From positions 32,001 through 96,000 of the IMG/VR virus record IMGVR_UViG_2622736592_000004: a stretch of DNA of 64,000 bases. The stretch is one strand, 5' to 3'. The notes beneath the pieces were generated by a model. The model worked only from the letters and a program-made list of their open reading frames with translations. It searched no databases and had not been told where the DNA came from. Both the position numbers and the translations under genes were made by a program. Shown one piece after another: positions 10,629-40,477 of the stretch. This DNA comes from a virus (lineage: Duplodnaviria > Caudoviricetes). Position 1 is the first letter of the stretch, and each line of letters starts with the position of its first letter.

Positions 10629-10987
10629 TGGCCACCGACGACCTGATGGCGTGGGCCGGCCCGGCCTGGGCCGAACTGACCGACGAGCAGCGCGACCAGC
10701 TCGCAGACGCCGCCGCCGACATCACCCAGCGGTACCCCGACCCCGACGACCAGGACGACCGCGACGCCGCCCTGTCGGCCACCGTGCAGTACCTGCTTGG
10801 CGAGACCACCGCCGACGACACCGCCCGCGCCCTGCTCGCCGCCCGACAGGCCGCCCGTGCCGCCTACGTGGCCGCCGTCCAGCACGCCGTCATGCTCCAC
10901 CGGGTCGGCGGCAGCCAGAAGAAGACCGCTGCCCTGGCCTGCGGCATCGACCGGATGACCCTCCTCAAAGCCCTAGGCGAGCGGTGA
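10628..10987 (+). CDS. Small protein with C-terminal HTH (cassette repressor/antitoxin-like)
   Basis: QKKTAALACGIDRMTLLKALG; TGATG coupling. Confidence 0.7.
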   Translation: MATDDLMAWAGPAWAELTDEQRDQLADAAADITQRYPDPDDQDDRDAALSATVQYLLGETTADDTARALLAARQAARAAYVAAVQHAVMLHRVGGSQKKTAALACGIDRMTLLKALGER

Positions 10988-11760
10988 GCCAGAACGAGTG
11001 GCTGCGCCGCCTACGCCGCGCCGGAACGGCAGTCACCGCAGCCAGCGCGGCCAGCGACGAAGCGTTCGCGCACCTCGATGCCACGGTCCGCGCCGCACGC
11101 CAGGCAGGGCGCACCGTGGCGCACCTAGTGACCGTGACGGGCCTAAGCAAAGCCCGAATCGACGAGGCCATCGCGGCCAGCGACCCCGAGGACGACCTGC
11201 CAAGCAGCGACACCGCCCTGCGGATCGCCGCATACACCGCCGCCGCCGCAGACGCCAACTACCTTGCCTGCCGTGGCCGCCGAGACGCGCTCATGCTCCA
11301 AGCCGGCATGGAAGGGCTGACGTACTCGGCGATCGCCGCTGCGGCGGGCACCTCCCGCCGGTACGAGTGGCAGCTACGCACCGGACGCCTCGACATTGAC
11401 AGGCGGTCGCCACGGCAAGACGTGTTCGAAGGGGCCGGCATGGAGGCATACCGGGCCACCGAGAACGCGCGGCTGCGATCCCGCCGGCAAGCGGTAGAAG
11501 CCGGGCTGCCGGTGCAGATCACGCACGGACTGTACGGCTACCGCCACGGATGCCGGTGCGACGTGTGCGCGGAGGCGCGGCGCGGCGTCCAGACGGGCGA
11601 CGTGGCCGTCAGCCACGGGCTCGACGGCTACCGCCACGGCTGCCGATGTGAGGTGTGCACGGCCAAGAACGCCAGCTACCACCGTGACTGGCGTCGCCGC
11701 CGGTCAAGCACAGTGCGGGTACTCCCTCCGCAGAGAGGGGAACCGCGATGGGAGGGGTAG
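10984..11760 (+). CDS. Double HTH-like protein with two HGxxGYRHGCRCxxC Zn motifs
   Basis: GTGA overlap; tandem HGLYGYRHGCRCDVC / HGLDGYRHGCRCEVC. Confidence 0.6.
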   Translation: MSQNEWLRRLRRAGTAVTAASAASDEAFAHLDATVRAARQAGRTVAHLVTVTGLSKARIDEAIAASDPEDDLPSSDTALRIAAYTAAAADANYLACRGRRDALMLQAGMEGLTYSAIAAAAGTSRRYEWQLRTGRLDIDRRSPRQDVFEGAGMEAYRATENARLRSRRQAVEAGLPVQITHGLYGYRHGCRCDVCAEARRGVQTGDVAVSHGLDGYRHGCRCEVCTAKNASYHRDWRRRRSSTVRVLPPQRGEPRWEG

Positions 11761-12197
11761 CCACCCTGGAACATGGGCAGCAGGAGTACGCGTGGCTGCT
11801 CGACGCGATCCGGGCGGACCCGTGGCTGGTGGGGCGCATGTGGGTGGACGCCGAATCCACCCCTGACGAGCTGGACCAGCCCGGCACGGTGTGGTGCGTG
11901 GCGCTGGTCGACGACGTCCCGGCGGCGTGGTGCGCGGCCACCCCCGACGCGGGCGTGCTCCGGGCGCACTCCAACTACGAGCACCCCCGCCACCGGGGGC
12001 GCGGCCTGTACGCGGCGGCGTACGCGCAGCGGCACCGCGACGTGATCCGGGCGTCGGCGCTGCCGGCGGCGACACACCTGTTCGCCCAGCCCATCGCCCT
12101 GCACGAGGCCGACGGCTGGCACTGCACTGGTGCGGAGGGGGCGGGCGAGGTGGACGGCAACTGGTGGTGGGAGCTGCGCCGCGACCCCACGGATTGA
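11748..12197 (+). CDS. GNAT-fold acetyltransferase-like protein
   Basis: YEHPRHRGRGLYAAAY motif A; LHEADGW motif B-like. Confidence 0.65.
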   Translation: MGGVATLEHGQQEYAWLLDAIRADPWLVGRMWVDAESTPDELDQPGTVWCVALVDDVPAAWCAATPDAGVLRAHSNYEHPRHRGRGLYAAAYAQRHRDVIRASALPAATHLFAQPIALHEADGWHCTGAEGAGEVDGNWWWELRRDPTD

Positions 12198-12301
12198 CGG
12201 TTGGGAACACGCTTTCCCGCGCCCGCCGACAAGAGCACCGCCCGGGGCCGCTGTCGTCTCCCGGACAGCCCCACACCGCGCCGGCCGCTACCGTGCCGGC
12301 G

Positions 12302-12625
12302 GTGCAAACCCTCACCCTCAAAGCCGGCAGCCTCGGCAACACCTGGCACGCCGCCCACATACTCCTGTCGGCCATCACCTGCGGATGGTGGCTGCCCATC
12401 TACGGCATCCACGCACTCATCTCCGTCGCCACCCGCCCCACCGTCCAGGTCAACGTGCCCGACGGGCATCGGGTCGAATACCGCAACGGCTGGCCCAACG
12501 TCCTCGGCCCCGATGAGTACCTGGAACCCCGCACCGGCCGGGAGAAGCTGCTCCGCGTCGCCGGCTACGCCTCGCCCGCGCTCATCCTGGCGGCGATCCT
12601 CGTGGGCATGAACATTCGGGGTTGA
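12302..12625 (+). CDS. Small membrane protein (possible superinfection exclusion)
   Basis: HILLSAITCGWWLPIY and C-terminal TM; TACCGT -10 at 12289-12294 suggests leaderless GTG. Confidence 0.6.
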   Translation: MQTLTLKAGSLGNTWHAAHILLSAITCGWWLPIYGIHALISVATRPTVQVNVPDGHRVEYRNGWPNVLGPDEYLEPRTGREKLLRVAGYASPALILAAILVGMNIRG

Positions 12626-12779
12626 CCCGACGCCACCTGCGGGTACCCCGTCGGTGTGGATCGTGAGCATTGGCGGGCGCTCGCGGCACGGCACAGCCGA
12701 TGCGACGTCGAGCCCCGCCGCTGCCGCGACTGCCACGCCCTGTACCCGTGCTTCTACCGCCTGCGCGCAGACAGGGAAC

Positions 12780-12957
12780 TCACGCCGCCCGACGGCTAGC
12801 CTGCTCCCGCTGTACCGGGACACGGCCGTCACCGGACCGCTCCCACACGTCGGCCAGCATTAGCAGCGCCCGACGCCGCTCATCCCGGGCCGCCTCAACC
12901 TCGGCGTGGGTGCGCCTGCGGCACGCCTCCACCGCCGCCCGCAACCAATCCCACATG
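12780..12957 (-). CDS. Hypothetical small protein (start approximate)
   Basis: MWDWLRAAVEACRRR... within ORF 12780..13022. Confidence 0.35.
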
Positions 12958-26999: not shown

Positions 27000-27377
27000 T
27001 CAGTCGAACGGGTCGCCGATCGCCTCACACGCGGCGATGAAGCCTGGAGCCACGGCGTCGAGGGACGGGCCGACGAACGGCCGCGGGGCCATACGGGAAG
27101 TGCCGTGCTCGACGAACTTTGCGTAATGGGCTTCCGGCCCGTACTCGCCTTCCATCGCCCCGGACCTGCCGTCGCCAGTGAACGAGGTCGTCACCGATGA
27201 CCGCATGAAACCCGTGTCGACAGCCGCCAGCCGGCGGGCGACGCTTGCGCCTTCCTCGGTGGAGCGCCGGACCACCGCTGCGCCCTTCGCGCCGATCCGT
27301 TTCCCGGCGGTGCGTAACTGCGCCTCGATCGGTGCGAACTCCAGAACACCGTCCACCCAGATGGCAGCCACGGTCAC
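27000..27377 (-). CDS. HK97 gp10-like neck protein
   Basis: VDTGFMRSS...YAKFVEHGTSRMAPRPFVGP. Confidence 0.85.
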   Translation of the reverse strand: MTVAAIWVDGVLEFAPIEAQLRTAGKRIGAKGAAVVRRSTEEGASVARRLAAVDTGFMRSSVTTSFTGDGRSGAMEGEYGPEAHYAKFVEHGTSRMAPRPFVGPSLDAVAPGFIAACEAIGDPFD

Positions 27378-27805
27378 CCCCGACGGTTGATGGGTTCCTC
27401 GATGTCGCAGCCGACGTTGCGCTGCCACGACAGGCCAGAGCGGGGCACATCCACCACCCGCAGCCGCACACCCGGCAGAGACGGGTCGCCGTCGCAGCCG
27501 TCGACCACCCACACATCCCGGACGTGCGGGACGGGGGTCTCGGCGGGCAGCACGAGCAGGTATCCGCCGACCGCCACGATCCGGTCGGCCTGCATGCCCT
27601 GCGCGCCGCTGTTCGCGCGGATCCGCGCCTGACCCGAGTAGATGAGCGCCGGATCTGGAAACGTGGTCGTGCCGGTAGCCGGATCACGCACGCCCGTCTC
27701 GGAGGGGCGCAGCAGTCGACCGGTCACGGTCATCGCAGCCTCAGACACCGGACGGTGGTGCGCCTCGAAACGAGAATGAATCAGGCGGTGGTTGGGCAGC
27801 GGCAT
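27374..27805 (-). CDS. Head closure/head-tail adaptor (DUF6093-like)
   Basis: DPATG....IYSGQARI...DPSLPG.RLRV; synteny. Confidence 0.7.
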   Translation of the reverse strand: MPLPNHRLIHSRFEAHHRPVSEAAMTVTGRLLRPSETGVRDPATGTTTFPDPALIYSGQARIRANSGAQGMQADRIVAVGGYLLVLPAETPVPHVRDVWVVDGCDGDPSLPGVRLRVVDVPRSGLSWQRNVGCDIEEPINRRG

Positions 27806-27816
27806 CAGGGCACCCC

Positions 27817-28473
27817 CTAGAGGTACGAGTCGCCCCAGCTCACCGCCGGAGGGAAGGCGTACAGCGGCAGCAGATTCTGCCCAGGGGCCGTGCCATCGTC
27901 TTGCTCCTCGTCGGCTGCCTGTTCTCGCAACGTCTTCGCCAACGCCCTCAGTTCGGCGGCGACAGCAGCGCCGTTCGTCGTCAGGTCTTGCATGCTAATG
28001 ACCTTGGAGATCAGCACCTCCGACCCGGCGATGATTTCCAGCGCGGCGGCGGCACCCCGCTTGACGCTGCTTCCCTCGGCGGTGATCAGTGCGGCAAGCT
28101 GGGCGTCCTCGAACAGCGGGGCTGTCTCGTCAAGGTCGGAGATCCGCAGTCGCACCATGCCGATAGGGGTGGCCGGGTCAACCGTGATGGGCGGTAGGCC
28201 TACCAGGTCGCGGGCTACAACGAACCTGCCTTGCACCGCATCCTCGGCGGTACCGGTCGCGGTGAGGCTGTACGTGTGGGTTCCGGGGGCTGCAACCTGG
28301 TAGACGGCCCGGTAGGTGCTGCCATCAGCGGTGACCGTCATGGCAGCGGTCGTGCCGTCGGGGCGGGTCACCTCACCCGCTACGGTCGCGCCCGTCACCG
28401 GGTCGCCGTTGACACCACGCAGCGTCCATTCGGCGATGAACTGCTGCCCCTGCCAGTAGACGCGTGCGCTCAC
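27817..28473 (-). CDS. Head-tail connector with extra N-terminal Ig-like domain
   Basis: C-half GMVRLRISD....LFEDAQL...AAAALEIIA; N-half beta-rich VTRPDGT...GSTYRAVY. Confidence 0.7.
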   Translation of the reverse strand: MSARVYWQGQQFIAEWTLRGVNGDPVTGATVAGEVTRPDGTTAAMTVTADGSTYRAVYQVAAPGTHTYSLTATGTAEDAVQGRFVVARDLVGLPPITVDPATPIGMVRLRISDLDETAPLFEDAQLAALITAEGSSVKRGAAAALEIIAGSEVLISKVISMQDLTTNGAAVAAELRALAKTLREQAADEEQDDGTAPGQNLLPLYAFPPAVSWGDSYL

Positions 28474-29804
28474 AGCAGGGTCACCTCCGACCGTTGAGGC
28501 GTGGAGACTGTGCTGCCGGCGGGGATACGAACCTCGCCCCGGGCGGGTGGCGGGAGGGCGACGCCTGCAACCGACCATCCGGTGCTGATGGTCCCCTCCG
28601 CCGTGGCGGCTGTTGACCAGACTGCGTCTAGGGTTCCGCCTACGGGGGCGGTGACCGCCCAGCCGGTGGTGATCGCACCCGACGTGGGGGCGGCCACATC
28701 CCACACGGTGGCGGTGCTACCGGCGGCCGTTGACCGCACAGACCACGAGGTGCCCGCGCTGCCGCCGACTGTGGCCGAGGTAGCCCAGCCGGTGGAGGCG
28801 CTGCCTGCCGCCGCCGCCAACGCCGACCACGCGGTGCTGACACTGCCGCCCGTTGAGGTAGCCGTCGCCCAGCCAGTTACCGTGCTGCCCGACACCTGCG
28901 CGGCCACATCCCACGATGTGCTGACCCCACCGCCAGCCGCAGCGTCAACCGACCAACCGGTGGCGACCGCGCCCGACACGGTGGATGCCACAGACCATCC
29001 GGTCGCTGTCGACCCGGATGCCGTTGACGCCACCGACCACGCAGAGGCCACCGCACTAGACAGCGGGGAGGCCACCGACCAGGTGGTGCCCGCGCCGCCC
29101 GTGACCGGAGCCGACAGCGACCAGGCAGTGCCCACCGCACCCGACACAGGTGTGGTTGTCGCAGTTGGGGCGACCTCCACCAGCAGACCGATCATGGAGC
29201 TGCTGACATCGGAGGTGACAGTCTCCCCGCCGTAACTGCCTGTCGACCCGACCAGCACATACCCGGCCGCCGCCCGCACGTTCGCGTTCGTCGTCGCCCG
29301 AGACGTGCTGGTGTCGACGACCTCCGTGTAGGAGCCGTCGAGGTTGATGTTGGTGGGGATCGTGCCGGACCCGACGCGGCTGTGTGCGTCCACCAGCAGC
29401 GCCGCACCGGCTGTGACACCTGTCAGGGTGGGCAGGGTGACCGTGGTGCCGGTCGCGTTGGCGGCGGCGGCCTGAGCGATGCTGTCCGCCCCGCGCACCA
29501 CCAGCAGCTCCCAGCCGCCCGTCACGCTGCCCGAGTTGGTGATTGTCGGCGCGGTGTCCCCGGATTGCAGGATCCGATACCAGGCGTACATCCGGGATGC
29601 GGACCCATCCGCGTACGGCCACGTCACCCCGGGTAGCAGCGTCCACCCGGCCGGCGTGGACATGGTGAGGGATCCGCCGGACACGTGCCCGACTAGCAGG
29701 CCAATGTCGCCGTCAGCCCACCCGACAGGAAAGCTGGTGGCGAACGATGTCGCGGTCGCTGAGCCGGGGTTGCCGGAGGCGACACCCACGTAGGAGACCG
29801 CCAC
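28470..29804 (-). CDS. Putative fibre protein: N-terminal beta domain plus 14-aa periodic Trp repeat
   Basis: 14 Trp spaced exactly 14 aa apart in S/T/A/G/V-rich region. Confidence 0.7.
   Translation of the reverse strand: MAVSYVGVASGNPGSATATSFATSFPVGWADGDIGLLVGHVSGGSLTMSTPAGWTLLPGVTWPYADGSASRMYAWYRILQSGDTAPTITNSGSVTGGWELLVVRGADSIAQAAAANATGTTVTLPTLTGVTAGAALLVDAHSRVGSGTIPTNINLDGSYTEVVDTSTSRATTNANVRAAAGYVLVGSTGSYGGETVTSDVSSSMIGLLVEVAPTATTTPVSGAVGTAWSLSAPVTGGAGTTWSVASPLSSAVASAWSVASTASGSTATGWSVASTVSGAVATGWSVDAAAGGGVSTSWDVAAQVSGSTVTGWATATSTGGSVSTAWSALAAAAGSASTGWATSATVGGSAGTSWSVRSTAAGSTATVWDVAAPTSGAITTGWAVTAPVGGTLDAVWSTAATAEGTISTGWSVAGVALPPPARGEVRIPAGSTVSTPQRSEVTLL
28575..29123 (-). repeat. 13 x 42-bp degenerate coding tandem repeat
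   Basis: First and last Trp codons 546 bp apart (13 x 42). Confidence 0.85.
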
Positions 29805-29820
29805 CGCGACCTCCTGCCCG

Positions 29821-30747
29821 TCAGCGCATCAGGTCGACGAACGCGGCCCGCTCGCGGTCCCGCACGTACGTCCGCCCGTCCGGGTAGGTCAGGGTCGCGT
29901 CGAGGTGGCAGTTGCCCCGGTAGAACCACGCGACGTCCGGCACGTCCGGCTGCGCCCGCAGGTACGCCATGTTGTCCCGCATCGCCTGCGCGCAGATCGC
30001 CCCGTCAGGGTCGTAGGCGGCACCGGACTTGAGCGTCGGCTTCCGTTGGATGCCCCACTCGGGGATCACCAGCGGACGGCCAACGCGCCGCGCCTGAGCG
30101 AGCGCGAAGTCGTTCCGCTCGACCGGGGTGCGATACCGCTCGTATCCGGTGTCGTAGATGTCGAACCCGACGGCGTCCACCCCATCAAACGCCGCCGCCT
30201 GCCCGAAGTCCTGCCACCATGCGTTGTTGCGGCGCGCGGCGTACTCCGTGAAAACGGGCACCAGCCACACCTCACGCCGTCGTGGATGGTCGGCGAGCGC
30301 TTCGAGCAGCTCCAGCCACTCCTGCCGGTACTCCGCCGGGGTTGGGTCTCCGGAGTCCTGCTGCTCAGGCTCGTGGTCCAGGGTCAGCAGGTCCACCACG
30401 CCACGCCTCGCCGCCGGCCGCGCCGACAGCCAGTCCCGGATCAGCGCCGGGGATGTCGTGCGAGACCAGTCCTTGAACGAGTAGTGCAGCACCGTGTCCA
30501 CCGGCACCTGGGCGAGCATCCCCGACGACCACGGCGCGATGCCCTTTCCCGGTGCGCTGTAGAGGCGCATCAGTCGGGGCTGCGGGTAGCGGGTGGCCAT
30601 GCGCTGGATGTCCGTCACGGTGCTGTCCGGTGGGCACCAGCCGAGCAGGGTCGACCCGTCCTGCACGGTAACCGTCGTCGCCGTGACGGTGGTGTTGCCG
30701 GTGGCGTCACGTACCCGCCCGGTCAACACGACCGTGCGGGCTGCCAT
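29821..30747 (-). CDS. Clan GH-A glycoside hydrolase (GH26-like), probably virion-associated
   Basis: DHEPE acid/base, VDAVGFDIY, PLVIPEWG nucleophile. Confidence 0.7.
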   Translation of the reverse strand: MAARTVVLTGRVRDATGNTTVTATTVTVQDGSTLLGWCPPDSTVTDIQRMATRYPQPRLMRLYSAPGKGIAPWSSGMLAQVPVDTVLHYSFKDWSRTTSPALIRDWLSARPAARRGVVDLLTLDHEPEQQDSGDPTPAEYRQEWLELLEALADHPRRREVWLVPVFTEYAARRNNAWWQDFGQAAAFDGVDAVGFDIYDTGYERYRTPVERNDFALAQARRVGRPLVIPEWGIQRKPTLKSGAAYDPDGAICAQAMRDNMAYLRAQPDVPDVAWFYRGNCHLDATLTYPDGRTYVRDRERAAFVDLMR

Positions 30748-31040
30748 CAGGCGACCGAGACTGTGAACCGGCCGGGGGCCGACGGGTCCTCGACGATCGT
30801 CACGCCCGGGTCATTGGCGGTCAGCTCGTAGGTGAGCGGATCCCCGACCGTGACCGTGGTCGTGGCGGACGCGGTGGCACCGTTGGCGTCGGTGACGCTG
30901 CCGGACAGGGTGATGGTGCGGGCGTCCGGGTCGAACGCGTCGATCCACACCTGCACCGCCTGGCCGGGCTGCACCGTGTCGGGGGAGGCGACAATCGAAC
31001 GGATGATGGGGGCGGCCATGCGGCGTCCAATCTGAATCAT
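30747..31040 (-). CDS. Small Ig-like beta protein
   Basis: APIIRSIVASPDTVQPG..V...AFDPD...DPLTY; alternative start 31019. Confidence 0.65.
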   Translation of the reverse strand: MIQIGRRMAAPIIRSIVASPDTVQPGQAVQVWIDAFDPDARTITLSGSVTDANGATASATTTVTVGDPLTYELTANDPGVTIVEDPSAPGRFTVSVA

Positions 31041-31043
31041 GGG

Positions 31044-31580
31044 TCAGAGGGTGTCGCCGAGCCAGGCGAAAGTGGCTCCGTCGGCGGCGAGAGGGGCGGT
31101 GTTGGCGGCGGTGCGGCGCACCCAGAACGCCTTCACCTGACCGGGGCCAATGTCGCCGAGGCTGAGCGCAGCCCCGCTCGTGGTCGGAGTGGAGAACGTG
31201 ACCCCAGCCGGGGCGGTCGTGTCGTTGGCGATCGTGACGGCCTGAGCCGACGACGACCCGACAGCGGATACGGCGGTCGGATCCACACCGATCGCCACCG
31301 ACGCACCACCCGACACTTCGGCGGAGACGTACACCTTCGCCGCCTGGAGTGTCAGGCTGCCGTGGGTGTTGTGCACGAACACGCAGGCGTAGTCGACCTG
31401 GCTCGCCGCGTTCTCCGCGCCGGTGATGTTGGGGAACAGGCCGTTGGTGCTGCCGTCGGCGACGGTGGTCGTCGACACGTACTTGCCGAGAGATGCCCCC
31501 ACCACCCCGGCGGTGGTGTTACCCGCAGAGCCTGAGGTGGTGGACAGCTTGAACACGATGTCGGACGCGACGATCGCCAC
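31044..31580 (-). CDS. Putative fibre/filament structural subunit
   Basis: AGGAGG RBS; small-residue beta-rich; LFPNITGAEN...DYACVFVHN...LGDIGPGQVKAFWVRR. Confidence 0.65.
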   Translation of the reverse strand: MAIVASDIVFKLSTTSGSAGNTTAGVVGASLGKYVSTTTVADGSTNGLFPNITGAENAASQVDYACVFVHNTHGSLTLQAAKVYVSAEVSGGASVAIGVDPTAVSAVGSSSAQAVTIANDTTAPAGVTFSTPTTSGAALSLGDIGPGQVKAFWVRRTAANTAPLAADGATFAWLGDTL

Positions 31581-31685: not shown

Positions 31686-32183
31686 TTACTGCTGCCGCTG
31701 CTGGGCGAGCTTGACCAGGTCGGCCTTGTCCTGCTTGGCCAGGTCGTCGTAGTCGCCGCCCTGCTTGACGTGCCACTCCACCCACACCGGCTGACCGGCG
31801 TTGGGGTGCGGCATCGACCCGTCCTTGGGCAGCTTCGCCTGCGCGGCAGCCCTCTTCGAGTCAGCCGAGTCGGCGTCGGACTGGTCCCCGGTGGGCTGCT
31901 CGCCCGACGAGTAGGTGGAGGTGAGCACGCCGTCGCTGTCGCGGCGCGGCACGTCGTCGTCGAGGTCGTCTGCCTCGATGGTGGTGAGGCCGTCGGCGTT
32001 CACCCCGCCCGTCTCATCCCCGCCCACCTTGACGACGAGGCCAGTGTCGAGCAGGTGCTTCAGTTCGGGGGCGTTGCCCGGAACCAGCGCGCCCTTGTAC
32101 AGCAGGACGCGGGTGCGGCCGGACGGGGTGTCGGTGGAGACGTAGGCGCATTCGCCGACGATCTGGTAGGTCGCGTCACTCAT
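31686..32183 (-). CDS. Hypothetical head-associated protein
   Basis: Directly after capsid; acidic linker; small C-terminal helical motif. Confidence 0.7.
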   Translation of the reverse strand: MSDATYQIVGECAYVSTDTPSGRTRVLLYKGALVPGNAPELKHLLDTGLVVKVGGDETGGVNADGLTTIEADDLDDDVPRRDSDGVLTSTYSSGEQPTGDQSDADSADSKRAAAQAKLPKDGSMPHPNAGQPVWVEWHVKQGGDYDDLAKQDKADLVKLAQQRQQ

Positions 32184-32198
32184 CGGTCATCCGTCCTG

Positions 32199-33134
32199 TC
32201 AGCCCAGCGAGCCAGTGCCGGTGATCTTGATGGCGGCACCCGGCTCCTGAATGACCGGCACCGTGATGCGGCGGGCCCAGACGTCCCAGGCGTCCCGCTC
32301 GTCGATCCGCTTCGTCTTGTACTGGAGGCCGTTGTCGAGGGTCGCGTAGCCCGGGTCCACGTCAGTCTCGTCGGCCATACCGCCCAGCTCGTCCCGGTCG
32401 AACACCCACACGTCGTCGCTGGGCAGGTTCGCCACCGCCGTGGCGATGATCTCGTACTTGCCGAGACGGTCGATCTCGCCGCCGTAGATCGGGTTGTCGG
32501 AGGTTTCCCGACGCCGCAGCGCCGCGATCGCCGGATCGGTCACGAGCATCGCGTACTTGGTGGTGGACATGAGCACCGCGTTCGGGTTGTACCCCTGGTT
32601 CAGGTCGACGATCTTCGCCGCCGCGACCTCCACGTCCCGGAACAGAGCCGGCGACGCGGCGTTCCACGCGGCAGCCGCAGTCGACACGTTGGTGACCGCC
32701 GACGCCATCGCCGCCGTCGACAGCTTGTCGACCTTCGAGATGACCGTGTTCGCGGTCTTCCGCAGCGCCCGGTTCACCTCCTGACCCATGTACACGCTGC
32801 GCTTCAGCTTCTCGTCGGTGAGCTGGACCGCCTGACCCCACTTGCTGACCGCAGCCAGCGCGGCGGTGCCCTCGGCGGGCGTGTCACGCGGGTACTCGGA
32901 GCCGGGGGCCACCGACTCGATGGCCCGACTGTTCATGATCGGCTCGGACATCTCGTAGGCGACCGCGCCGCCCTGGGTGCGGATGCGGTTGGTGAGGATC
33001 CGGTCCGCGACGAACCGCAGCTCGGCGATGGTACGCAGCCGACGCTGGAGGCGGGTCGGGTCCTGGAGGAGACGGTGGATGGTGAGCAGGTCGCCGGCCA
33101 GCGTGGGGGCGGCCGGAGGGTAAGCGCCCGGCAT
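32199..33134 (-). CDS. Major capsid protein
   Basis: VAPGSEYP...KWG....TDE...PVIQEPGAAIKITG; position. Confidence 0.85.
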   Translation of the reverse strand: MPGAYPPAAPTLAGDLLTIHRLLQDPTRLQRRLRTIAELRFVADRILTNRIRTQGGAVAYEMSEPIMNSRAIESVAPGSEYPRDTPAEGTAALAAVSKWGQAVQLTDEKLKRSVYMGQEVNRALRKTANTVISKVDKLSTAAMASAVTNVSTAAAAWNAASPALFRDVEVAAAKIVDLNQGYNPNAVLMSTTKYAMLVTDPAIAALRRRETSDNPIYGGEIDRLGKYEIIATAVANLPSDDVWVFDRDELGGMADETDVDPGYATLDNGLQYKTKRIDERDAWDVWARRITVPVIQEPGAAIKITGTGSLG

Positions 33135-33274: not shown

Positions 33275-33634
33275 TCAGATTTCCATCCACTCCACGGCAG
33301 CGCCGTCGGCGGCCGTGGTCAGGGCGATTCCGACGTTCGTGACGGCGGCGGTGCCGGAGGCGACGGTGCCGGCCGCACCGGCGTCGACGCGGGCGGCGGC
33401 GGTGATCGCACCGGAGGCGGTGGACACGTGGACCTTGCCGCGCGGGAAGTAGGACACGCGGGCCCCGGACGCGGCGTCGAACGCGGCGACCCCGATGACG
33501 GCAGCCGACGCGGCACCAGCGGGGCCGACGGTGCCGTTGCCGGTCACGGCGAGCACCTGACCGCCGGTGACGGTCGCCGACGTGGTGCCGGTGATCTGGT
33601 CCGAGTACAGGAACTTCGGCTCGTAGGCACCCAT
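33275..33634 (-). CDS. Capsid decoration/cement protein
   Basis: Ala/Gly-rich; IGVAAFDAASG...ASGAITAAA...VGIALT. Confidence 0.8.
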   Translation of the reverse strand: MGAYEPKFLYSDQITGTTSATVTGGQVLAVTGNGTVGPAGAASAAVIGVAAFDAASGARVSYFPRGKVHVSTASGAITAAARVDAGAAGTVASGTAAVTNVGIALTTAADGAAVEWMEI

Positions 33635-33636
33635 GG

Positions 33637-35883
33637 TCAGTTACCCCCGGTCGTGGCGGTCGGGCCGTCGAGGGCAGCCATCTGGCGCTCCCACTCGGCG
33701 TCCAGGTCGACGGTGGTGTCCGCGCTGCCGGTGTAGCCGGACATGGCGACGGGAACAGCGGTGCCGGCGGCGATGGAAGCGAGGACGCGGGTGACAACGC
33801 CGGGGGCGTCGTCGTAGTCCTTCTCCCACTTCTCCCGGTCGGCGGGGGTGAACTTGCCGAGCCGCTGCGCCTCGTCGAGGACGGACGCCTTGACGGTGGC
33901 GGTCTTCTCCGCCTCGGCGGCGGCGAGCTTCGCGGACATGGTCTGCACCTGGGAGGCGAGAACGTTGACTTCCTTGCGGAGCTCGTCGTTCTCGGCCTTC
34001 GCGGAGGCGGCGACCTGCTCGGTGTCGGGCTGGGCGGTGGCCTGGGTGTGGAGGGCGTCGAGCGCGGCCATGACGGCGTTGTCGTCGGCGTCCTCTGCCA
34101 GGCCGAGCCGGGAGCGCACGTCGGTGCTCAGAGTGGACACAGGGTCCTCTCCTTCCTTCGGTTCGGTGAATGGTGCGGGCTCCGGCTCGGCGGCCGGGAG
34201 TTCAGGTGCCGGGACGATCTCCGGCGGGGTGATGTCGGGGGCCGGTTCGGCAGGCGGCGTGACCGTGTCCGGGCCTGCGGGCGTGTCGGCGGGCTGCGGG
34301 GCGGGCCGGGACTCGTCGCGGGACGCGAACACCATCCGCGCCGCCGCCACCGGCTCGTCGGCCGGCACATACGCGGGACGCACCCGCTCGGGCGCACCGA
34401 AGCGGATGCTGTCGCCGTCCACGGACACCGGCACACGAACCAGCGACCGGTCCGTGTTGTCCATGACGATGACCTCGTCTTCGGCGGCCTCCACAACCCA
34501 CTGCTGCTCCGGCGGCTTCGACGCGTTCCACGCCTCGTGGATGCGCTCCACCAACCCCGGCGTCGGGTTAGGCATCAGTTCTCCATTCCTTCCGTCCGAG
34601 GCGTGAACCCCCCGGTTACGCCGGTCACCCGGCCAGTAGCCGTACCGGTCGTGGAACCAGGCGGCGGCGATGCGTTTCGCTCTCTCCGGTGACACGTGGT
34701 GGCGCAGGTGCTTGTACAGGTCCGTCCACGTCGTCCACCGGGCCAGGCCCTTCCCGAGCCAAAACCGTTTGAGCTGGTTTTCATCGGCTGCCGCCATCAC
34801 CGGGTCGCCGGTGGTGTCCCCGTAGTCGGCGGGCAGCGGCTCCGGTTCGGTGAGTAGCGGAATGTCGAGGCGTTCACCGGCGAACGCGATCCGCACCCGG
34901 TCGAACACGACCGGGCCGGTCCGGTCGTACAGCGCCGCGAGTTGGGTGGGGTCGGCCGTGTAGGTGAGGGTCAGGTGGGCGTTCCACGGGGCGTGTTGGT
35001 CAGGCAGGTCCAGGCCGGCGAGCGCGTCGGCGACAAGCCGGTGGACGACTTCCAGGTCGGCTCCGGACATGCCGAGCACGGTGCACGGTTCTCGTTCGCT
35101 GCTGCCCGGGTTGAACAGGGCGAGGCTGAACCCGTCGGCGTTGGCGGTGGGCATGCCGTCGACTGCTCCGGCGACGGCGGCGATGATGTCTTGCCGCGCG
35201 GCAGGGGTGAGGTCGACGGCGTCACCGAGGTAGGCGAGGGTGACGTGGAGTTCGTCAGCGGGTTCCCCGCCGTCAACTGCCAGCCGGGCGGCGTCTTCGG
35301 CGGTGGGGATCAGCGCCACCATCGCCCCGGTGTGGGCCGGCGGATCATCGTCGGCGGCAGCGCGCACTGAGGCGACGATGCGCACCTCACCGGCTGCCGG
35401 ATCCCGATGCGCCGCCGCGACCCCGTAGAGGGCTTTGACGTCGTTGAGGCTGGACAGGGTCGACACCCCGGGCGGGGTGACACCGAGCAGCGCCACCGCA
35501 GTCAACACGAACGGATGCGTGTGCCCAATACCGCACCGATAGTTGTAGGTGCCCTCCACCGACCGGTTCGGCCACGCGGCGGCCTGCACCCCGGTCAACC
35601 ACGACGGCGCGACCTGGTCACCGACGAGGGTGTGGCCGCCGTCGGCGGTGCGAAGGTTCTCGTACCAGCCGATCGCCGGTTCCCCATCGCCGGGGGTGAA
35701 CCGCTTGTCGGTGTGCCCGATCTTGATGATGGGCTTGCCGATGGCCGGGCACGACAGGGCGGCGACGGCGGCGGCGATGTCCTGCCGGGATGCCCGCCAC
35801 GTGCCGGTGCTGATCTGCCAGGTGCCGGTGCGGACGAGTTCCACCCCGTCGCGGCGGGCCATCTGCACGGTGTCGGTGGGCAT
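33637..35883 (-). CDS. Capsid maturation protease - 2H phosphoesterase - scaffold polyprotein
   Basis: IKIGH...PAIGW...RSVE...VALLGVTPPGV; HVTL and HLTL; C-terminal coiled coil. Confidence 0.8.
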   Translation of the reverse strand: MPTDTVQMARRDGVELVRTGTWQISTGTWRASRQDIAAAVAALSCPAIGKPIIKIGHTDKRFTPGDGEPAIGWYENLRTADGGHTLVGDQVAPSWLTGVQAAAWPNRSVEGTYNYRCGIGHTHPFVLTAVALLGVTPPGVSTLSSLNDVKALYGVAAAHRDPAAGEVRIVASVRAAADDDPPAHTGAMVALIPTAEDAARLAVDGGEPADELHVTLAYLGDAVDLTPAARQDIIAAVAGAVDGMPTANADGFSLALFNPGSSEREPCTVLGMSGADLEVVHRLVADALAGLDLPDQHAPWNAHLTLTYTADPTQLAALYDRTGPVVFDRVRIAFAGERLDIPLLTEPEPLPADYGDTTGDPVMAAADENQLKRFWLGKGLARWTTWTDLYKHLRHHVSPERAKRIAAAWFHDRYGYWPGDRRNRGVHASDGRNGELMPNPTPGLVERIHEAWNASKPPEQQWVVEAAEDEVIVMDNTDRSLVRVPVSVDGDSIRFGAPERVRPAYVPADEPVAAARMVFASRDESRPAPQPADTPAGPDTVTPPAEPAPDITPPEIVPAPELPAAEPEPAPFTEPKEGEDPVSTLSTDVRSRLGLAEDADDNAVMAALDALHTQATAQPDTEQVAASAKAENDELRKEVNVLASQVQTMSAKLAAAEAEKTATVKASVLDEAQRLGKFTPADREKWEKDYDDAPGVVTRVLASIAAGTAVPVAMSGYTGSADTTVDLDAEWERQMAALDGPTATTGGN

Positions 35884-35893
35884 GGTCACCGCA

Positions 35894-36169
35894 TCACACC
35901 CGCTCGGGCCAATGCCACGTGCCGCCCTGGTGGTTGTCCTCCGACTGGGGGCAGCGGTTGAAGAACAGACCGGTGGGGTTGAGCACGACCAGGTCGACCA
36001 CGACGGCGTCGGAGTCCCATTCCTCGGCACGATCGGGGTCGGCGACGGGCAACGCGCCGACCGGTACTCCGGCGACGATCGCGGCCCGGCACTGGCTGGT
36101 GTACTCGCCACCAGGCGTGCCATAGCTGACGTAGTGCACGATGCGGCCGACGCTCGGCTGCTGACTCAC
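35894..36169 (-). CDS. Conserved small phage protein
   Basis: PSVGRIVHY...RAAIV...GTWHWP; AGGAG RBS. Confidence 0.7.
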   Translation of the reverse strand: MSQQPSVGRIVHYVSYGTPGGEYTSQCRAAIVAGVPVGALPVADPDRAEEWDSDAVVVDLVVLNPTGLFFNRCPQSEDNHQGGTWHWPERV

Positions 36170-36272: not shown

Positions 36273-38330
36273 CTAGTCGGGGATGACGGCGTAGAAGAAG
36301 CCCCGACACCTGTCCCGGCCTTCACACGCCCGGTACTTGCCGGTCGGGTAGTCGGCGAGCGCATCCGCGAACGTGTCGTATTCGCGGCCGTCCACCTGCC
36401 GACACGGCCCGCACGTGTTCAGGTCCAGCACCTCTGTGGCACGGAACCGGGTGCCGTCGGGCAGCTCACCCAACACCTGCTCGCGGCCCGCCGCTTGGGC
36501 GGTCGTCGCGGCAGCCGACAGGTTCCCGGCGACGAGGCCACCGTTCTTGGCGGTGGACAGGTCGGTGAGCGCAGCCCGCACAGCGTCACCCACCACGTTG
36601 GGGTCGATGCTGTTGCCGGCGTGAGCCAAAGCGACCCGGGCGGCGGCGTTCGCATACCCGGACACGATCACGTCGGTGACGGCGCGGGCGGTCTGCCGGA
36701 TCCGCTGCTCCCGCTCCGGGCTCAGCGCAGCCGGCATCCGGGCCAGTGGTGCCGCCTCCTTGGCTGCCCCGGCAGCCGACTTGCCGGCCAAGTCCAGCAT
36801 TCCGGCGGCGACGATCGCGGCAAGCCCGGCGGTGACGGCGGCCGGAACAGCCAGCGCACCCAACCCGACGATCATGCCCCCGGCGACCTCCGCGACGGCA
36901 GCAGCAACGAGGACATCCACCAGCGGCGACGACTGCTCCTCCCACTGGGCGGTCATGTCGGCGACGGCCTGCTCATGCTGGGCGGCAACCGTCGTGTAGT
37001 CGACTGGGTCACCGGGCTGCGGCGCGGCAGCCGCTACCTTGTCGGCAGGCTGCCCTGCCCTGCCAGGCTCCGTTCCGACGGTTGGGCGGGGCGGCGTACG
37101 AGGCGGTGCAGGCTCCGGGGTTGTCTGCTGTGTGCGTTCCGGCAGCCGATACTCCCGGCGCACCCACGCCTCCAACGCCGGATCCGCCGACAGGGCACCC
37201 GACGTCAACAGCAGTTGCAGCGACTCGGCCGTCACCTCACGCCGCGACCCGACACCAGACACCACCACACGGGGCACCGGCTCGTCTTCGCCCCAATTCC
37301 AGTCCACAACCCGCGCGACAGCCTGCCTGGTTGCGGTGTCGGCGATCTGCTCGCCGATCGACTCCAACGCAAGCGTCCACGAGTCGATGAACGCGCCACC
37401 CAACGACCGGGAGCCGCTGTCGGTGGAACCCAAATCCATGTGCTGCATGAGCACACTGCGGGACATTTCCTGGTTGAGGAACTTGATGAACCCGAGCGTG
37501 TCCGGCACCGACCCCGACAGGCCCACGATCTTCATCGTGAACCCGGGCGGGGTGGCCGCACCCGCCTGATCCCCGGCACGGGCAGCCGACATCATGCGCT
37601 GCGCCGACGCCAACTGCTCAGGCGACGGGTTCGTGCCCGGCAGCGCCTCAGCGACCGGCACCCCCGCACCCCACCGCCGGTTTGAAATGGCGTTGACCCG
37701 CATCATCTCCCGCTTGATCAGCCAAGCGGCGTAAGCGGGACGCAGCAGCGACGTGCCCTGCCACGACGCGCCCTCCCGGTCGTGGCAGTACCAGACGAGC
37801 CGCTCGGCCGGGATCTGCGGCGACTGATCCCCGCGCATCACCAACTGGTCGATGCCGAGCAGCGCGCCGGTCTTCGGGTCGGCGTGGATCTCCGCGATCG
37901 TGCCCGGGATCCGTTCCGCCAACACGTTCAGGCGGGCACGGCCCCCCGACACGTCGGCTGCCAACTCGAACCCGTAATGCCCCCACACGAGGCACAGCAG
38001 CGCCGACCGCAGATGCTCAGACCACGACACGCCCTGCCGGCGGAACGCCGACGGCCGGTCATCGCCGGCAACCGGCAACCCTAGGCAGTCGGCGACGAAC
38101 CGGGTGACCTCCGGCCGACATCCGGTGCCGTCCAACTGCCACTGGGCGCGACGCAGTTGCAGGGTGTACCCGCCGAGCACACCCGCCAACTGCGGGTCGC
38201 GGCGCATCTGCGCGTACACCTCCACCGACCCCGGATACACGAGGTCGGGCACCGATTCGTACACGTCGTTGACGAGGGTGCCGTACTGTCGGTCGTCGAC
38301 CATGCCGAGAAGGCGGGTGGGGGCAGACAC
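36273..38330 (-). CDS. Portal protein (Mu gp29/DUF935-like) fused to MuF-like domain
   Basis: YAQMRRDPQL...GTSLLRPAY..W..K; C-terminal LDLNTCGPC..DG...CEGRDRCRG. Confidence 0.85.
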   Translation of the reverse strand: MSAPTRLLGMVDDRQYGTLVNDVYESVPDLVYPGSVEVYAQMRRDPQLAGVLGGYTLQLRRAQWQLDGTGCRPEVTRFVADCLGLPVAGDDRPSAFRRQGVSWSEHLRSALLCLVWGHYGFELAADVSGGRARLNVLAERIPGTIAEIHADPKTGALLGIDQLVMRGDQSPQIPAERLVWYCHDREGASWQGTSLLRPAYAAWLIKREMMRVNAISNRRWGAGVPVAEALPGTNPSPEQLASAQRMMSAARAGDQAGAATPPGFTMKIVGLSGSVPDTLGFIKFLNQEMSRSVLMQHMDLGSTDSGSRSLGGAFIDSWTLALESIGEQIADTATRQAVARVVDWNWGEDEPVPRVVVSGVGSRREVTAESLQLLLTSGALSADPALEAWVRREYRLPERTQQTTPEPAPPRTPPRPTVGTEPGRAGQPADKVAAAAPQPGDPVDYTTVAAQHEQAVADMTAQWEEQSSPLVDVLVAAAVAEVAGGMIVGLGALAVPAAVTAGLAAIVAAGMLDLAGKSAAGAAKEAAPLARMPAALSPEREQRIRQTARAVTDVIVSGYANAAARVALAHAGNSIDPNVVGDAVRAALTDLSTAKNGGLVAGNLSAAATTAQAAGREQVLGELPDGTRFRATEVLDLNTCGPCRQVDGREYDTFADALADYPTGKYRACEGRDRCRGFFYAVIPD

Positions 38331-38346
38331 GGTTCACCCCCGACGG

Positions 38347-39942
38347 CTACAGCGGTACAGATTCCAAGTCGAGTTCCGGCGGGTCCGCCCGTGACGGCGG
38401 CGGGGGAGCGGGTGCTGCTCTTGTGATCGCCACCCGCACCGCGTAGGCGAGGGTGTCCACCTGGTCGTCGTGTGCGCCGTTCGGGAACGCCGCGCACTCG
38501 TCCACCCAACTCTTGACCCACCACGCACCCGCAGGAAGCCACACCCGGCCGTTCGAACACCACGCCGACGCCGGCAGCGCCCGCGTCAACTTGTCCTGCT
38601 CCGCCTGCAACGGGGTGATCGGGATACCCGCGTTAGCGGCCTCCCGCACCAACGTCATGCCGTGCTGGGTGGCCTCCACGAACAGGGTGTCCAGCTGCCA
38701 CCGCTCCACCAGCGGCAGGGCGTGAGCGAAGTGGTCGGCCTCCCCGATGCGGGCACGGACCCTATCCAGCAACACCAGGTCACCGGAGATGGTGCGCGCC
38801 CACGCGGAGATGACCGTCCAGTCCGCCGACGTCTTCGTAGACGCGGCCAGGTCGACGGTGGCGAACCGCCAACAGTCCGCCAGCCGAAACGACCGCATGC
38901 CCAAGCTGAGCATGCCGCCCGGCTGCGGCGACCAGTACCGCCACCAGATCCGCTTGAACAGGTTGCCCTCAGCCGGCGCGGGCCGCTGCTGGTACAGGGC
39001 GGCGAACACATACTCGCCGACAGCCTTACGGATCGCCTTCCAATCCCGGTCACCCCGGGCGGAGATCATCCCTTCGCCGGCCTTCCGGCCGAGGACGTCG
39101 TTGTCGTCCTCAGCGACGGCGGGAATCGACACGACCCGCCACCGGCCGCCGTTCTTCCGGTCGCCTTCGTTGGCGAGGATCTGCCGGATCGGCTCCGACT
39201 CGTGCCAGCACGTTTGGATCCACGCCATCCGGGCCCCCGGGCCAAGACGAGGAACCATCGCCGACTGGTAGACGGACATGGCCTTGTCGCGGATTTTCTC
39301 CGACTGCGCCTCAGCCATGTTCTTGAGCGGGTCGTCCACGAGGATGACGTCGCCGGCTTTACCGGTGATCGATCCGTTGATGCCAGCGCAGTACACCGAC
39401 CCGCGATGCCCGGCAATGTTCCACCGGCCGGCAGCGCGAGAGTCTTTCCGCAGCCGCAACCCGAGGTCGACGGTGCCCTCGTCGCCCGACCAGCGTTCCA
39501 ACGCGTCCTTGATCTCGCCGCCCCACCGGCGGGCCATCTCGTCGCTGTACGACACGATGAGCACCCGCAGGTCCGGGTTGACGCAGGTGAGCAGCCACAG
39601 CGGAAACCAGAAGGAGACGGTCGTCGACTTGCCCTCTTGCGGGCTCATGAACGCGGCGAACCGGGTTTCCCGACCTTCGGCCAGGTCGACGAGCGCCGTG
39701 TTGATGAGTTCCAGGGCGGGGGTGCGCCACACCCCGACCCGTTCGCCGTTCTCGTCGAGACGTGGCGGGTCGAGTGAGGTGGCCATGTCCAGCGGCGACG
39801 GCCACCGGCGACGGTTCGCGTCGACTTTCCGCCGCGCCTCGGCGGTGCGCCGCTGCTCCTTCTCCGCCTTCAACCGGCGCAGCTCGACAAGTTTCGCCAG
39901 TTTCACCTGCCGAAGTGTCGGCGGATCAGCTACGACGGTCAC
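38347..39942 (-). CDS. terL: Terminase large subunit
   Basis: SPQEGKS, ILVDDPLK, YQQRP, FPNGAHDDQVD. Confidence 0.95.
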   Translation of the reverse strand: MTVVADPPTLRQVKLAKLVELRRLKAEKEQRRTAEARRKVDANRRRWPSPLDMATSLDPPRLDENGERVGVWRTPALELINTALVDLAEGRETRFAAFMSPQEGKSTTVSFWFPLWLLTCVNPDLRVLIVSYSDEMARRWGGEIKDALERWSGDEGTVDLGLRLRKDSRAAGRWNIAGHRGSVYCAGINGSITGKAGDVILVDDPLKNMAEAQSEKIRDKAMSVYQSAMVPRLGPGARMAWIQTCWHESEPIRQILANEGDRKNGGRWRVVSIPAVAEDDNDVLGRKAGEGMISARGDRDWKAIRKAVGEYVFAALYQQRPAPAEGNLFKRIWWRYWSPQPGGMLSLGMRSFRLADCWRFATVDLAASTKTSADWTVISAWARTISGDLVLLDRVRARIGEADHFAHALPLVERWQLDTLFVEATQHGMTLVREAANAGIPITPLQAEQDKLTRALPASAWCSNGRVWLPAGAWWVKSWVDECAAFPNGAHDDQVDTLAYAVRVAITRAAPAPPPPSRADPPELDLESVPL

Positions 39943-39964
39943 CGGTGTCCTCCCCGGCGTGTGG

Positions 39965-40477
39965 CTACTCCTGCGGCACCGACGTTGCCGGCTGCTCGTC
40001 GAGTTCAGCGGACAGCTTTGCGATCTCCGCATCCAACGCGTCGATGGTGATGGCTTCCACCTTCGTGGGGGCATCCAAGCCGAGGAATTTGGCCCGCCGC
40101 TCTTGGATCTTCAACACCCGGTCGATGGCGGCGAGCGTCGGCCCGTCGTCGATGAGCGGCTGGTCGGTGTCCTCGTCGCGGATGACCCGCCCGTGGGACA
40201 CGGTGACGTGCTGCCGTTTGAGGACAGCCCACGCTTCGGCGAGCAGCAGGTCGAGGCGCTGTAGTTCTTCTTCCCGGTATATGTCGGTGGCGCGGGTCTG
40301 TTCGGCGATGGCGGCTTCGAGCGCGCGGGTTACGTCTTGGCATGCCGCGCCGCGCGAGCTGTAGCCGAGGGCGTCGGCGATGGCTTGGAAGCTGGCACCG
40401 GTCATGCGCATGGCCACGGCCTCGGCGCGTCGTTTGGCGACTTGCGCGCGTTGGGCTTTGGAGGCGGCCACGTTCAC
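39965..40477 (-). CDS. terS: Terminase small subunit (HTH)
   Basis: GASFQAIADALGY; ERRAKFLGLDAP; upstream of terL. Confidence 0.8.
   Translation of the reverse strand: MNVAASKAQRAQVAKRRAEAVAMRMTGASFQAIADALGYSSRGAACQDVTRALEAAIAEQTRATDIYREEELQRLDLLLAEAWAVLKRQHVTVSHGRVIRDEDTDQPLIDDGPTLAAIDRVLKIQERRAKFLGLDAPTKVEAITIDALDAEIAKLSAELDEQPATSVPQE

Follow-up and report, generated by a model that had tools for sequence, protein, structure and literature searches.

A pair of adjacent genes, not described before, is shared by hundreds of unrelated phages. One gene encodes a small protein with an immunoglobulin (Ig)-like fold and the other a protein built of 14-residue aromatic repeats, and together they represent a widespread form of phage accessory-fibre module. 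We analyzed the pair starting from a 64,000-nucleotide stretch of viral DNA (IMG/VR record IMGVR_UViG_2622736592_000004, positions 32,001 to 96,000; hereafter the window), in which the Ig-like protein g178 (178 aa) is encoded 1.2 kb upstream of the repeat protein g444 (444 aa) on the same strand. With a probability of roughly 55%, we read g178 as an obligate partner that acts on the repeat shaft of an accessory fibre and most likely stays bound to it as a structural subunit; physical binding, virion location and stoichiometry are points that we infer.

The pair would form the core of an accessory virion fibre in a Micromonospora siphophage-type prophage. g444 would be the fibre itself, with an N-terminal beta-sandwich head that probably binds glycan or cell wall, a shaft of 14-residue units that are each predicted to form one amphipathic beta-strand (W-x-V-x-A-x-V), and a short C-terminal tail. 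g178 would act on the repeat itself rather than on the capsid or neck, and would coat or cap the shaft. The fibre would probably be mounted at the head-tail junction through g218, an Ig-bearing protein encoded at the adaptor position, while the small protein g97 and the GH-A-like hydrolase g308 would add glycan-cutting activity to the appendage.

A gene pair shared by unrelated phages

The association was measured in both directions. For the forward test, 80 IMG/VR loci were chosen solely with g178 as bait and were searched with profile A3, which covers four repeat units and derives from 26 of the loci, with the window left out. The A3 family is defined by tandem 14-residue units with an invariant aromatic residue in the pattern T/S(-2,-1)-W-x-V/T-x-A-x-V/I. 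A same-strand A3 repeat protein is present in 55 of the 80 loci, in 52 of them downstream of g178 and in 20 within 100 nt of it. Eleven of the 25 A3-negative loci have less than 2 kb of downstream DNA, and several others carry degenerate 14-residue repeats (with Trp replaced by Ala in L080) or proteins with a g444-like head and 20- or 22-residue repeats. A tblastn search with g444 gave matches in 39 of the 80 loci, each of them same-strand and due to the repeat region, in open reading frames (ORFs) that show long runs of Trp at 14-residue spacing. The GC content of the loci ranges from 32 to 72%, and a capsid protein relatable to that of the window was detected by tblastn in two of the 80, while g178 keeps 46–72% identity.

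For the reverse test, A3 was searched against 1.84 billion representative sequences, which returned 1077 proteins. Eight of these were taken at even steps down the list, and all six with usable flanking DNA have a same-strand g178 homologue upstream (E ≤ 6e-56 with A1, the g178 profile). The background is low, as the 7.9-Mb host genome gives A3 matches only in g444 and a single A1 match, g178 itself. Additionally, a blind DNA scan for Trp codons in 14-codon steps (TGG-N39; eight TGG codons at 42-nt spacing) recovered five clear A3-type loci, four of them with g178 nearby, among what were mostly simple-sequence artefacts and another type of 14-residue Trp repeat. This second repeat, about S-A-N-W-D-S-T-Y-T-T-V-S-S, is common in viral contigs (L088, L090, L093, L102, L113, L121, L123, L136, L139 and L146). 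It has no A3 match and no g178 homologue in the fetched DNA, so Trp periodicity alone is not a signature of the pair. We found no Pfam family, solved structure or paper for either the g178 family or the A3 repeat family. Because the pair recurs in unrelated phages, g178 and the repeat protein almost certainly work together on the virion. The original prediction, made from the DNA of the window alone, had tied the 178-residue and periodic proteins together functionally, and the tie holds in co-occurrence (55/80 forward, 6/6 reverse), with suggestive covariation in addition.

The pair spans siphophages, myophages and podophages. It is found in a myophage baseplate/tail-fibre module (L205), at a siphophage tail tip after the tape measure gene (L210) and next to podophage-type adaptor genes (L009 and L055), as well as in the cultured phages KVP40, nt-1 and their relatives and Alteromonas phage PT15-A5. 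It lies inside late structural operons throughout, in keeping with the earlier proposal of a virion-appendage cassette. A fusion of the repeat with a neck protein occurs in the T4-like Vibrio phage nt-1: residues 1–211 are a gp15 domain (PF16724) and residues 212–378 are a Trp/Tyr 14-residue repeat recognised by A3. The g178 homologue is the gene directly after this fusion, with wac, gp13 and gp14 beside it. In the N4-like Alteromonas phage vB_AemP_PT15-A5 (L212, 6462-7417), a 159-aa protein with a 14-residue Tyr period is encoded directly upstream of the g178 homologue; the two genes, A5gp_00016 and A5gp_00017, are both annotated as hypothetical and lie two genes before the portal gene.

Repeat proteins of the related loci range from about 160 to 2113 aa and from about 5 to about 130 units, with a cross-phage consensus of about a-T-R-a-T-T-W-N-V-r-A-x-V-t. 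Their N-terminal heads include a GDPD phosphodiesterase, an apiosidase-like hydrolase with a collagen-binding-type module, and three Laminin_G_3 lectin domains. The anchors vary as well, being a gp15 fusion, a PF23148 domain or none; PF23148, in which one repeat protein ends, is the fibre-tail adaptor domain of podophage GP4. Since heads and anchors vary while g178 is constant, the conserved partner of g178 is the repeat. In several relatives a 28-residue super-period is as strong as the 14-residue one, suggesting that two units make up one structural repeat. L205 contains another strong A3-type ORF (10714-12798, plus strand; E 1.5e-131), in a stretch where the source gene calls list only small minus-strand genes, and this region may be mis-called.

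Structural features of the two partners

The g178 protein matches phrog_13135 from end to end (E 4.1e-26, residues 1-177 on profile positions 1-180 of 182). Its AlphaFold2 model is a beta-rich, eight-strand beta-sandwich with a mean predicted local distance difference test (pLDDT) score of 88 and a predicted template modelling score (pTM) of 0.87. A strong Shine-Dalgarno sequence, AGGAGGTG, lies 6 nt upstream of the GTG start; both the beta-rich character and the strong ribosome-binding site had been read correctly from the DNA. Homologues fall into 1814 clusters in a word-limited search. No match to g178 was found in Pfam, NCBIfam or PDB sequences, and look-ups in the ESM Atlas returned only viral clusters labelled 'hypothetical protein'. 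Fold searches of the PDB and BFVD gave generic Ig-like beta-sandwiches (best Z 7.3) and one uncharacterised viral protein. Pilins are among the generic matches at Z 5.4–6.5 (FimA 6.5, CS17 6.0, PapA 5.7, and CfaB). A search of 400 Actinomycetia genomes found no g178 besides the window's own. A role as a capsid decoration protein was considered and rejected, as the pair also occurs in baseplate and tail-tip modules. Also counting against that role, two related loci, the M. carbonacea prophage L213 and L214, have a separate Phage_cement_2-like gene of 118-119 aa ahead of the capsid gene; the equivalent ORF of the window (33275-33634) has no Pfam match.

The g444 protein contains 14 Trp residues, from residue 228 to residue 410, and each of the 13 intervals between them is exactly 14 residues. 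Together with an N-terminal domain modelled at pLDDT >90 (residues 1-215), this agrees with the original description of a globular N-domain followed by an exact 14-residue Trp period. The unit consensus is G-s-v-a-T-g-W-s-V-a-a-t-a-s, which is degenerate relative to the cross-phage consensus, with G at -6 in place of R at -4; A3, made from 26 other phages, nevertheless matches g444 four times (E 5e-5 to 2e-4). Tandem Repeats Finder detected no tandem repeat in g444 at the DNA level, indicating that the units are old and diverged. Close relatives of g444 differ by whole 14-residue units, with 6 to 14 Trp. A tblastn search of cultured phages with g444 found nothing, probably owing to low-complexity filtering.

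The head of g444 has weak fold matches (Z <7) to the head of the Tuc2009 receptor-binding protein of a lactococcal phage (Z 6.7) and to lectins. It is kept in 28 relatives while their C-terminal repeats differ. Among these g444 relatives (P0126-P0148), the head of about 215 aa is joined to 14-residue Trp repeats, to 22-residue repeats of about A-P-D-G-x-x-V-P-V-A-V-G-x-P-x-A-x-W, or to T-L-T-P-A or Ala-rich repeats of about 20 residues, and the shaft modules of the family look interchangeable. At the other end of the protein, relatives finish in similar short motifs of the type R-P-x-x-G-x-V-x-R-P, which makes the C-terminal tail a candidate docking peptide.

The original prediction had cast the periodic protein as a mini tape measure, along which the 178-residue subunit would polymerise. 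The tape-measure reading was not supported. Tape measure proteins are long and mostly alpha-helical, with genes between those for the tail chaperones and those for the distal tail. The repeat proteins have lectin or enzyme heads of their own, and some also a C-terminal adaptor domain, and with these domains they resemble fibre shafts, not tape measures. g444 itself has a globular head and a model with beta-strands only, and it lies between the capsid and neck genes, while the true tape measure gene is elsewhere in the window. A ruler mechanism is a possibility, but we consider a fibre shaft accompanied by either a bound partner or an assembly factor more probable.

Covariation between the two proteins was analyzed in 58 distinct pairs. 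Arg at -4 of the repeat varies together with Trp40 and Asp47 of g178, and Gln or Glu at -3 with Arg or Lys172. On a g178 tree built without the covarying columns, the traits switch several times, each time in the same direction and never in the opposite one (e.g., L207 and L045). These patterns are suggestive of contact between g178 and the repeat. A further connection to the virion comes from P0151 (L204, 1395-4745), a 1116-aa metagenomic protein with an N-terminal region containing DUF7483, a g178 domain at residues 567-739 and a C-terminal part that matches phrog_1887, a 'tail protein'. A g178 domain inside a tail protein favours a structural role on the virion over a pure chaperone role. 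The N-terminus of P0151 has no detectable relation to the g444 head. By eye, a single repeat-like unit, R-E-L-L-W-S-V-A-A-T, can be seen 12 residues after the g178 domain, and it is not significant.

Alternative roles for g178 and relation to known systems

Several points weigh against g178 as a retained partner on the shaft of a neck-mounted fibre. The forward count of 55 loci is not fully independent, as A3 was made from a subset of the same 80 loci, and in the reverse test one locus (L211) is the same contig as L029, which fed A3, leaving five of the six independent. Raw covariation is inflated by the joint inheritance of linked genes. Only four independent pairs on well-supported branches remain, too few for a sign test to reach significance (p 0.25-1). 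For homologues of either protein, neither proteomic data nor a structure was found. In its model the g178 monomer is a complete domain in which no open groove is obvious, and the AlphaFold2 model of the g444 repeat, with one predicted strand per unit and all beta, is of low confidence (pLDDT ~45). Finally, mounting at the neck is plausible from gene order, and other phages have the pair among tail-fibre genes.

g178 might instead be a dedicated assembly chaperone for the 14-residue shaft, like Tfa, gp38 or gp57A, required for the shaft to fold or oligomerise, and be absent from the mature virion or marginally retained on it. We regard this as the most credible competitor, although a good deal less probable than a retained subunit. 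Phage fibre genes often neighbour a small assembly gene, and the obligate adjacency of g178 to a fibre gene, as well as a repeat that adopts no confident fold when modelled alone, would be natural for a chaperone; covariation is expected in this case too. However, g178 is usually upstream of the fibre gene, whereas known fibre chaperones are usually downstream. An identity of 46-72% across phages with unrecognisable capsid genes would be unusually high for a chaperone, and the g178 domain embedded in a large tail protein also argues for a subunit that is retained.

A bolder and rather unlikely possibility is that the repeat is a template, in which each unit of 14 (or 28) residues donates a beta-strand to one g178, so that the fibre resembles beads on a string and the repeat number sets its length. 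Such a beta-strand ruler would be a one-chain analogue of donor-strand-complemented pili, shared alike by siphophages, myophages and podophages. Each unit could indeed supply one amphipathic strand, with W, V, A and V on alternate positions. g178 stays constant across unit numbers of about 5 to about 130, and close relatives step by exactly 14 residues (6 to 14 Trp). Some repeat proteins are barely more than repeats (L003, L069, L070 and PT15-A5), the fold matches of g178 include pilin subunits, and the covariation fits, as does the repeat-like unit of P0151 for what a match by eye, without significance, is worth. The pilin matches nonetheless do not stand out from the many generic Ig-like ones (best Z 7.3), and g178 looks complete in its model, whereas a donor-strand pilin has an Ig fold without its last strand. 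Moreover, the low-confidence model of the g444 repeat resembles a beta-solenoid complete in itself, with a shape that aligns to the SufBD-type beta-helix 9h78_B (Z 10.2, root-mean-square deviation 3.8, 175 residues; pLDDT ~45), pectate lyases and VacA. An autonomous solenoid is the outcome that had been named beforehand as refuting the ruler; at this pLDDT, the model is compatible with such a solenoid, with a homo-oligomeric shaft and with a partner-dependent fold alike. The 28-residue super-period fits a two-strand solenoid coil or a hairpin equally well.

It is very improbable that neither protein is part of the virion and that phages carry the pair as a cell-surface or lysogenic-conversion module. 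In favour of such a module, the evidence for a virion role is indirect, and enzymatic and lectin heads could act on the host envelope from within a lysogen. Yet the pair always lies inside late structural operons on the same strand, its members are fused to the structural proteins gp15 and phrog_1887 and to a fibre-tail adaptor domain, and lytic T4-like and N4-like phages carry it. Inspection of the window proteins by eye, without a prediction program, showed no signal peptide or membrane segment.

In function, the closest described system is the bead-chain neck fibre of the Anabaena myophage A-1(L), which consists of a gp82 anchor, about 14 gp81 trimers and a gp80 tip (PMC10966104). Both would be multi-protein accessory fibres mounted at the neck, combining a repeated small subunit rich in beta structure with an anchor and a tip that binds carbohydrate; the A-1(L) anchor domain is reported to be pilus-like. 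The A-1(L) beads self-assemble head to tail without a template chain, and the three A-1(L) fibre genes lie apart from other structural genes (PMC10966104). Here, by contrast, one polypeptide carries the periodicity. Profiles A1 and A3 have no match in PDB sequences, and gp82N (PDB 8KEG) is not among the listed fold matches of g178.

In logic, judged by analogy, the nearest systems appear to be fibre-plus-helper pairs such as lambda Stf/Tfa, T4 gp37/gp38 and Mu S/U, in which a small, conserved protein encoded beside the fibre gene acts on the fibre and sometimes stays on it. They differ in that the partner here is upstream and is an Ig-like beta-sandwich of an unnamed family, the shaft repeat belongs to another unnamed family, and the polarity is often that of an N-terminal head and a C-terminal anchor. 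The T4 neck offers a likeness through nt-1, where the repeat is fused to gp15 with the g178 homologue as the next gene, beside wac; T4 gp15 itself (272 aa) is not known to have such an extension. Fibritin (wac) whiskers, in contrast, are alpha-helical coiled coils with no beta repeat, and need no Ig-like partner. The neck passage structure or collar-whisker of lactococcal siphophages is likewise an optional neck appendage with glycan-binding modules, each formed by one large protein that is not known to contain this repeat or to have this partner. Chaperone-usher pili are similar only if the repeat is a template, in that an Ig-like subunit is completed by an amphipathic strand of 10–15 residues and FimA, PapA and CfaB are weak matches (Z 5.4–6.5). 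No usher or chaperone is seen here, however; a single template chain would supply every strand, and the fold matches are not above background.

Accessory fibres decide phage attachment, and most fibre genes in uncultured phages are unrecognisable. The two linked families defined here, Ig-like (~1800 clusters) and 14-residue aromatic repeat (~1100 representative clusters), flag a fibre module in very different phages. With its swappable heads (lectin-like, phosphodiesterase, glycosidase) and anchors, the module is a plug-in receptor-binding device and an annotation marker. As the pair also occurs in cultured phages, the role of the partner as coat, cap, chaperone or templated polymer is directly testable.

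Genomic setting and neighbouring genes

The window has a GC content of ~70%, and its best protein matches are from Micromonospora. According to Pfam and PHROG matches, it contains a complete siphophage-type prophage late operon on the minus strand (Table 1). All five ORFs that the original prediction had placed between the capsid and neck genes are present on this strand, and to them must be added g165, which has the same position in L213 and L214. Downstream of g218 come the genes for DUF6093, an HK97 gp10-like protein and the major tail protein, in this order, and the tape measure gene is followed by genes for Dit-like and minor tail proteins.

Table 1 Features of the accessory-fibre locus and its late operon in the window
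Feature	Position	Strand	Family match or remark
Large terminase	38347-40074	-	late operon
Portal	36273-38330	-	late operon
828-aa protease-scaffold fusion	33637-36123	-	late operon
Major capsid protein	32199..33134	-	phrog_1650 (E 1e-75); PF25209
g165 (165 aa)	31686..32183	-	phrog_2322 'head-tail connector' (E 4e-10); between capsid gene and g178
g178, 178-aa Ig-like beta-sandwich protein	31044..31580	-	phrog_13135
g97 (97 aa), small beta-rich protein, lineage-specific accessory	30747..31040	-	no family above threshold
g308 (308 aa), probable clan GH-A glycoside hydrolase	29821..30747	-	PF11790 Glyco_hydro_cc
g444 (444 aa), whole gene	28470-29804	-	ORF; strong Shine-Dalgarno
g444 N-terminal globular domain, aa 1-215	29160..29804	-	beta-sandwich, pLDDT >90; candidate binding head
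g444 repeat region, aa 222-417	28554..29141	-	14 units x 14 residues
g444 C-terminal tail, aa 418-444 and stop codon	28470..28553	-	short Pro/Arg-rich segment
g218, adaptor-position protein with extra N-terminal Ig-like domain	27817..28473	-	phrog_18316, phrog_17896
DUF6093 neck-region protein	27374..27805	-	PF19586 (E 1e-20)
Tape measure protein, 1440 aa	20367-24689	-	phrog_934 and others

The start codon of g218 is GTG 28473, which overlaps the g444 stop codon (GTGA). The protein is thus 218 aa long rather than 295 aa, and relatives are called at 216–218 aa. Its C-terminal part matches phrog_18316, with a further match to phrog_1732 ('unknown function') and none to a named adaptor family. 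The N-terminal Ig-like signal is weak, consisting of matches to Filamin, Invasin_D3 and GTA_spike_fiber that are all below the cut-off. g218 had been called a head-tail connector with an extra Ig-like domain. The label 'connector' is due to the gene order before DUF6093, the HK97 gp10-like protein and the major tail protein, not to a named family, and the Ig-like domain has a sub-threshold signal. In L054 the g218 homologue is directly 3' of the repeat gene, and the order is the same in L213 and L214. As the adaptor-position gene follows the repeat gene here and in these three loci, mounting at the neck is proposed for this lineage. Anchoring at the neck, as first suggested for the appendage, is thus plausible here, given the g444-g218 overlap, the shared order and the gp15 fusion in nt-1, but is not general, since elsewhere the pair is in baseplate and tail-fibre modules.

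In 40 of 56 loci the next gene after that for the repeat protein is an ORF of 81–118 aa (e.g., L009 9199-9513, L034 9502-9831 and L029 2783-3106), and one cluster of 11 of these ORFs matches phrog_1084/phrog_1627. We could not show that these genes of ~100 aa form one family or are linked to the N-terminal domain of g218, with hhalign probabilities of at most 44%; the comparison with the g218 domain gave a mere hint (E 0.004, probability 8%).

Between g178 and g444 lie two genes that show no Shine-Dalgarno sites and are translationally coupled, as the g97 stop codon overlaps the g308 start codon (ATGA). g97 had been described as a small Ig-like protein; the ORF is real, and the Ig-like fold finds no backing beyond sub-threshold Pfam and NCBIfam matches. 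The call of a glycoside hydrolase fared better. g308 passes the gathering score of PF11790 by a thin margin (22.9 against 21 bits, E 7.2e-5, residues 105-281 on profile positions 53-218 of 237) and contains HEPE and PEWG motifs, typical of clan GH-A, as read off the sequence, which makes it a probable member of this clan. The motifs may hold the two catalytic glutamates expected there, an acid/base after strand 4 and a nucleophile after strand 7. Residues 40-54 of g97 resemble residues 3-17 of g308 (9/15 identical, BLASTP E 0.003). This common segment may be a docking strand, or the two may merely be similar Thr/Val-rich beta segments.

Both proteins had been placed in the appendage module, but the relatives show that they are not core parts. 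Between g178 and the repeat gene, L213 has the same pair, a 90-aa protein and the hydrolase, L214 has an unrelated 294-aa gene, and L002 and L054 have nothing. g97 is absent from L002, L054 and L214, and both g97 and g308 are absent from most relatives. Because even the closest relatives differ here, the two genes are lineage-specific add-ons.

Further upstream in the operon, the 828-aa fusion begins with a head maturation protease (phrog_3894) and ends in a C-terminal protease/scaffold-like part, and between them residues 245-423 match PHROGs annotated as 'RNA ligase' (phrog_2659, E 2e-30).

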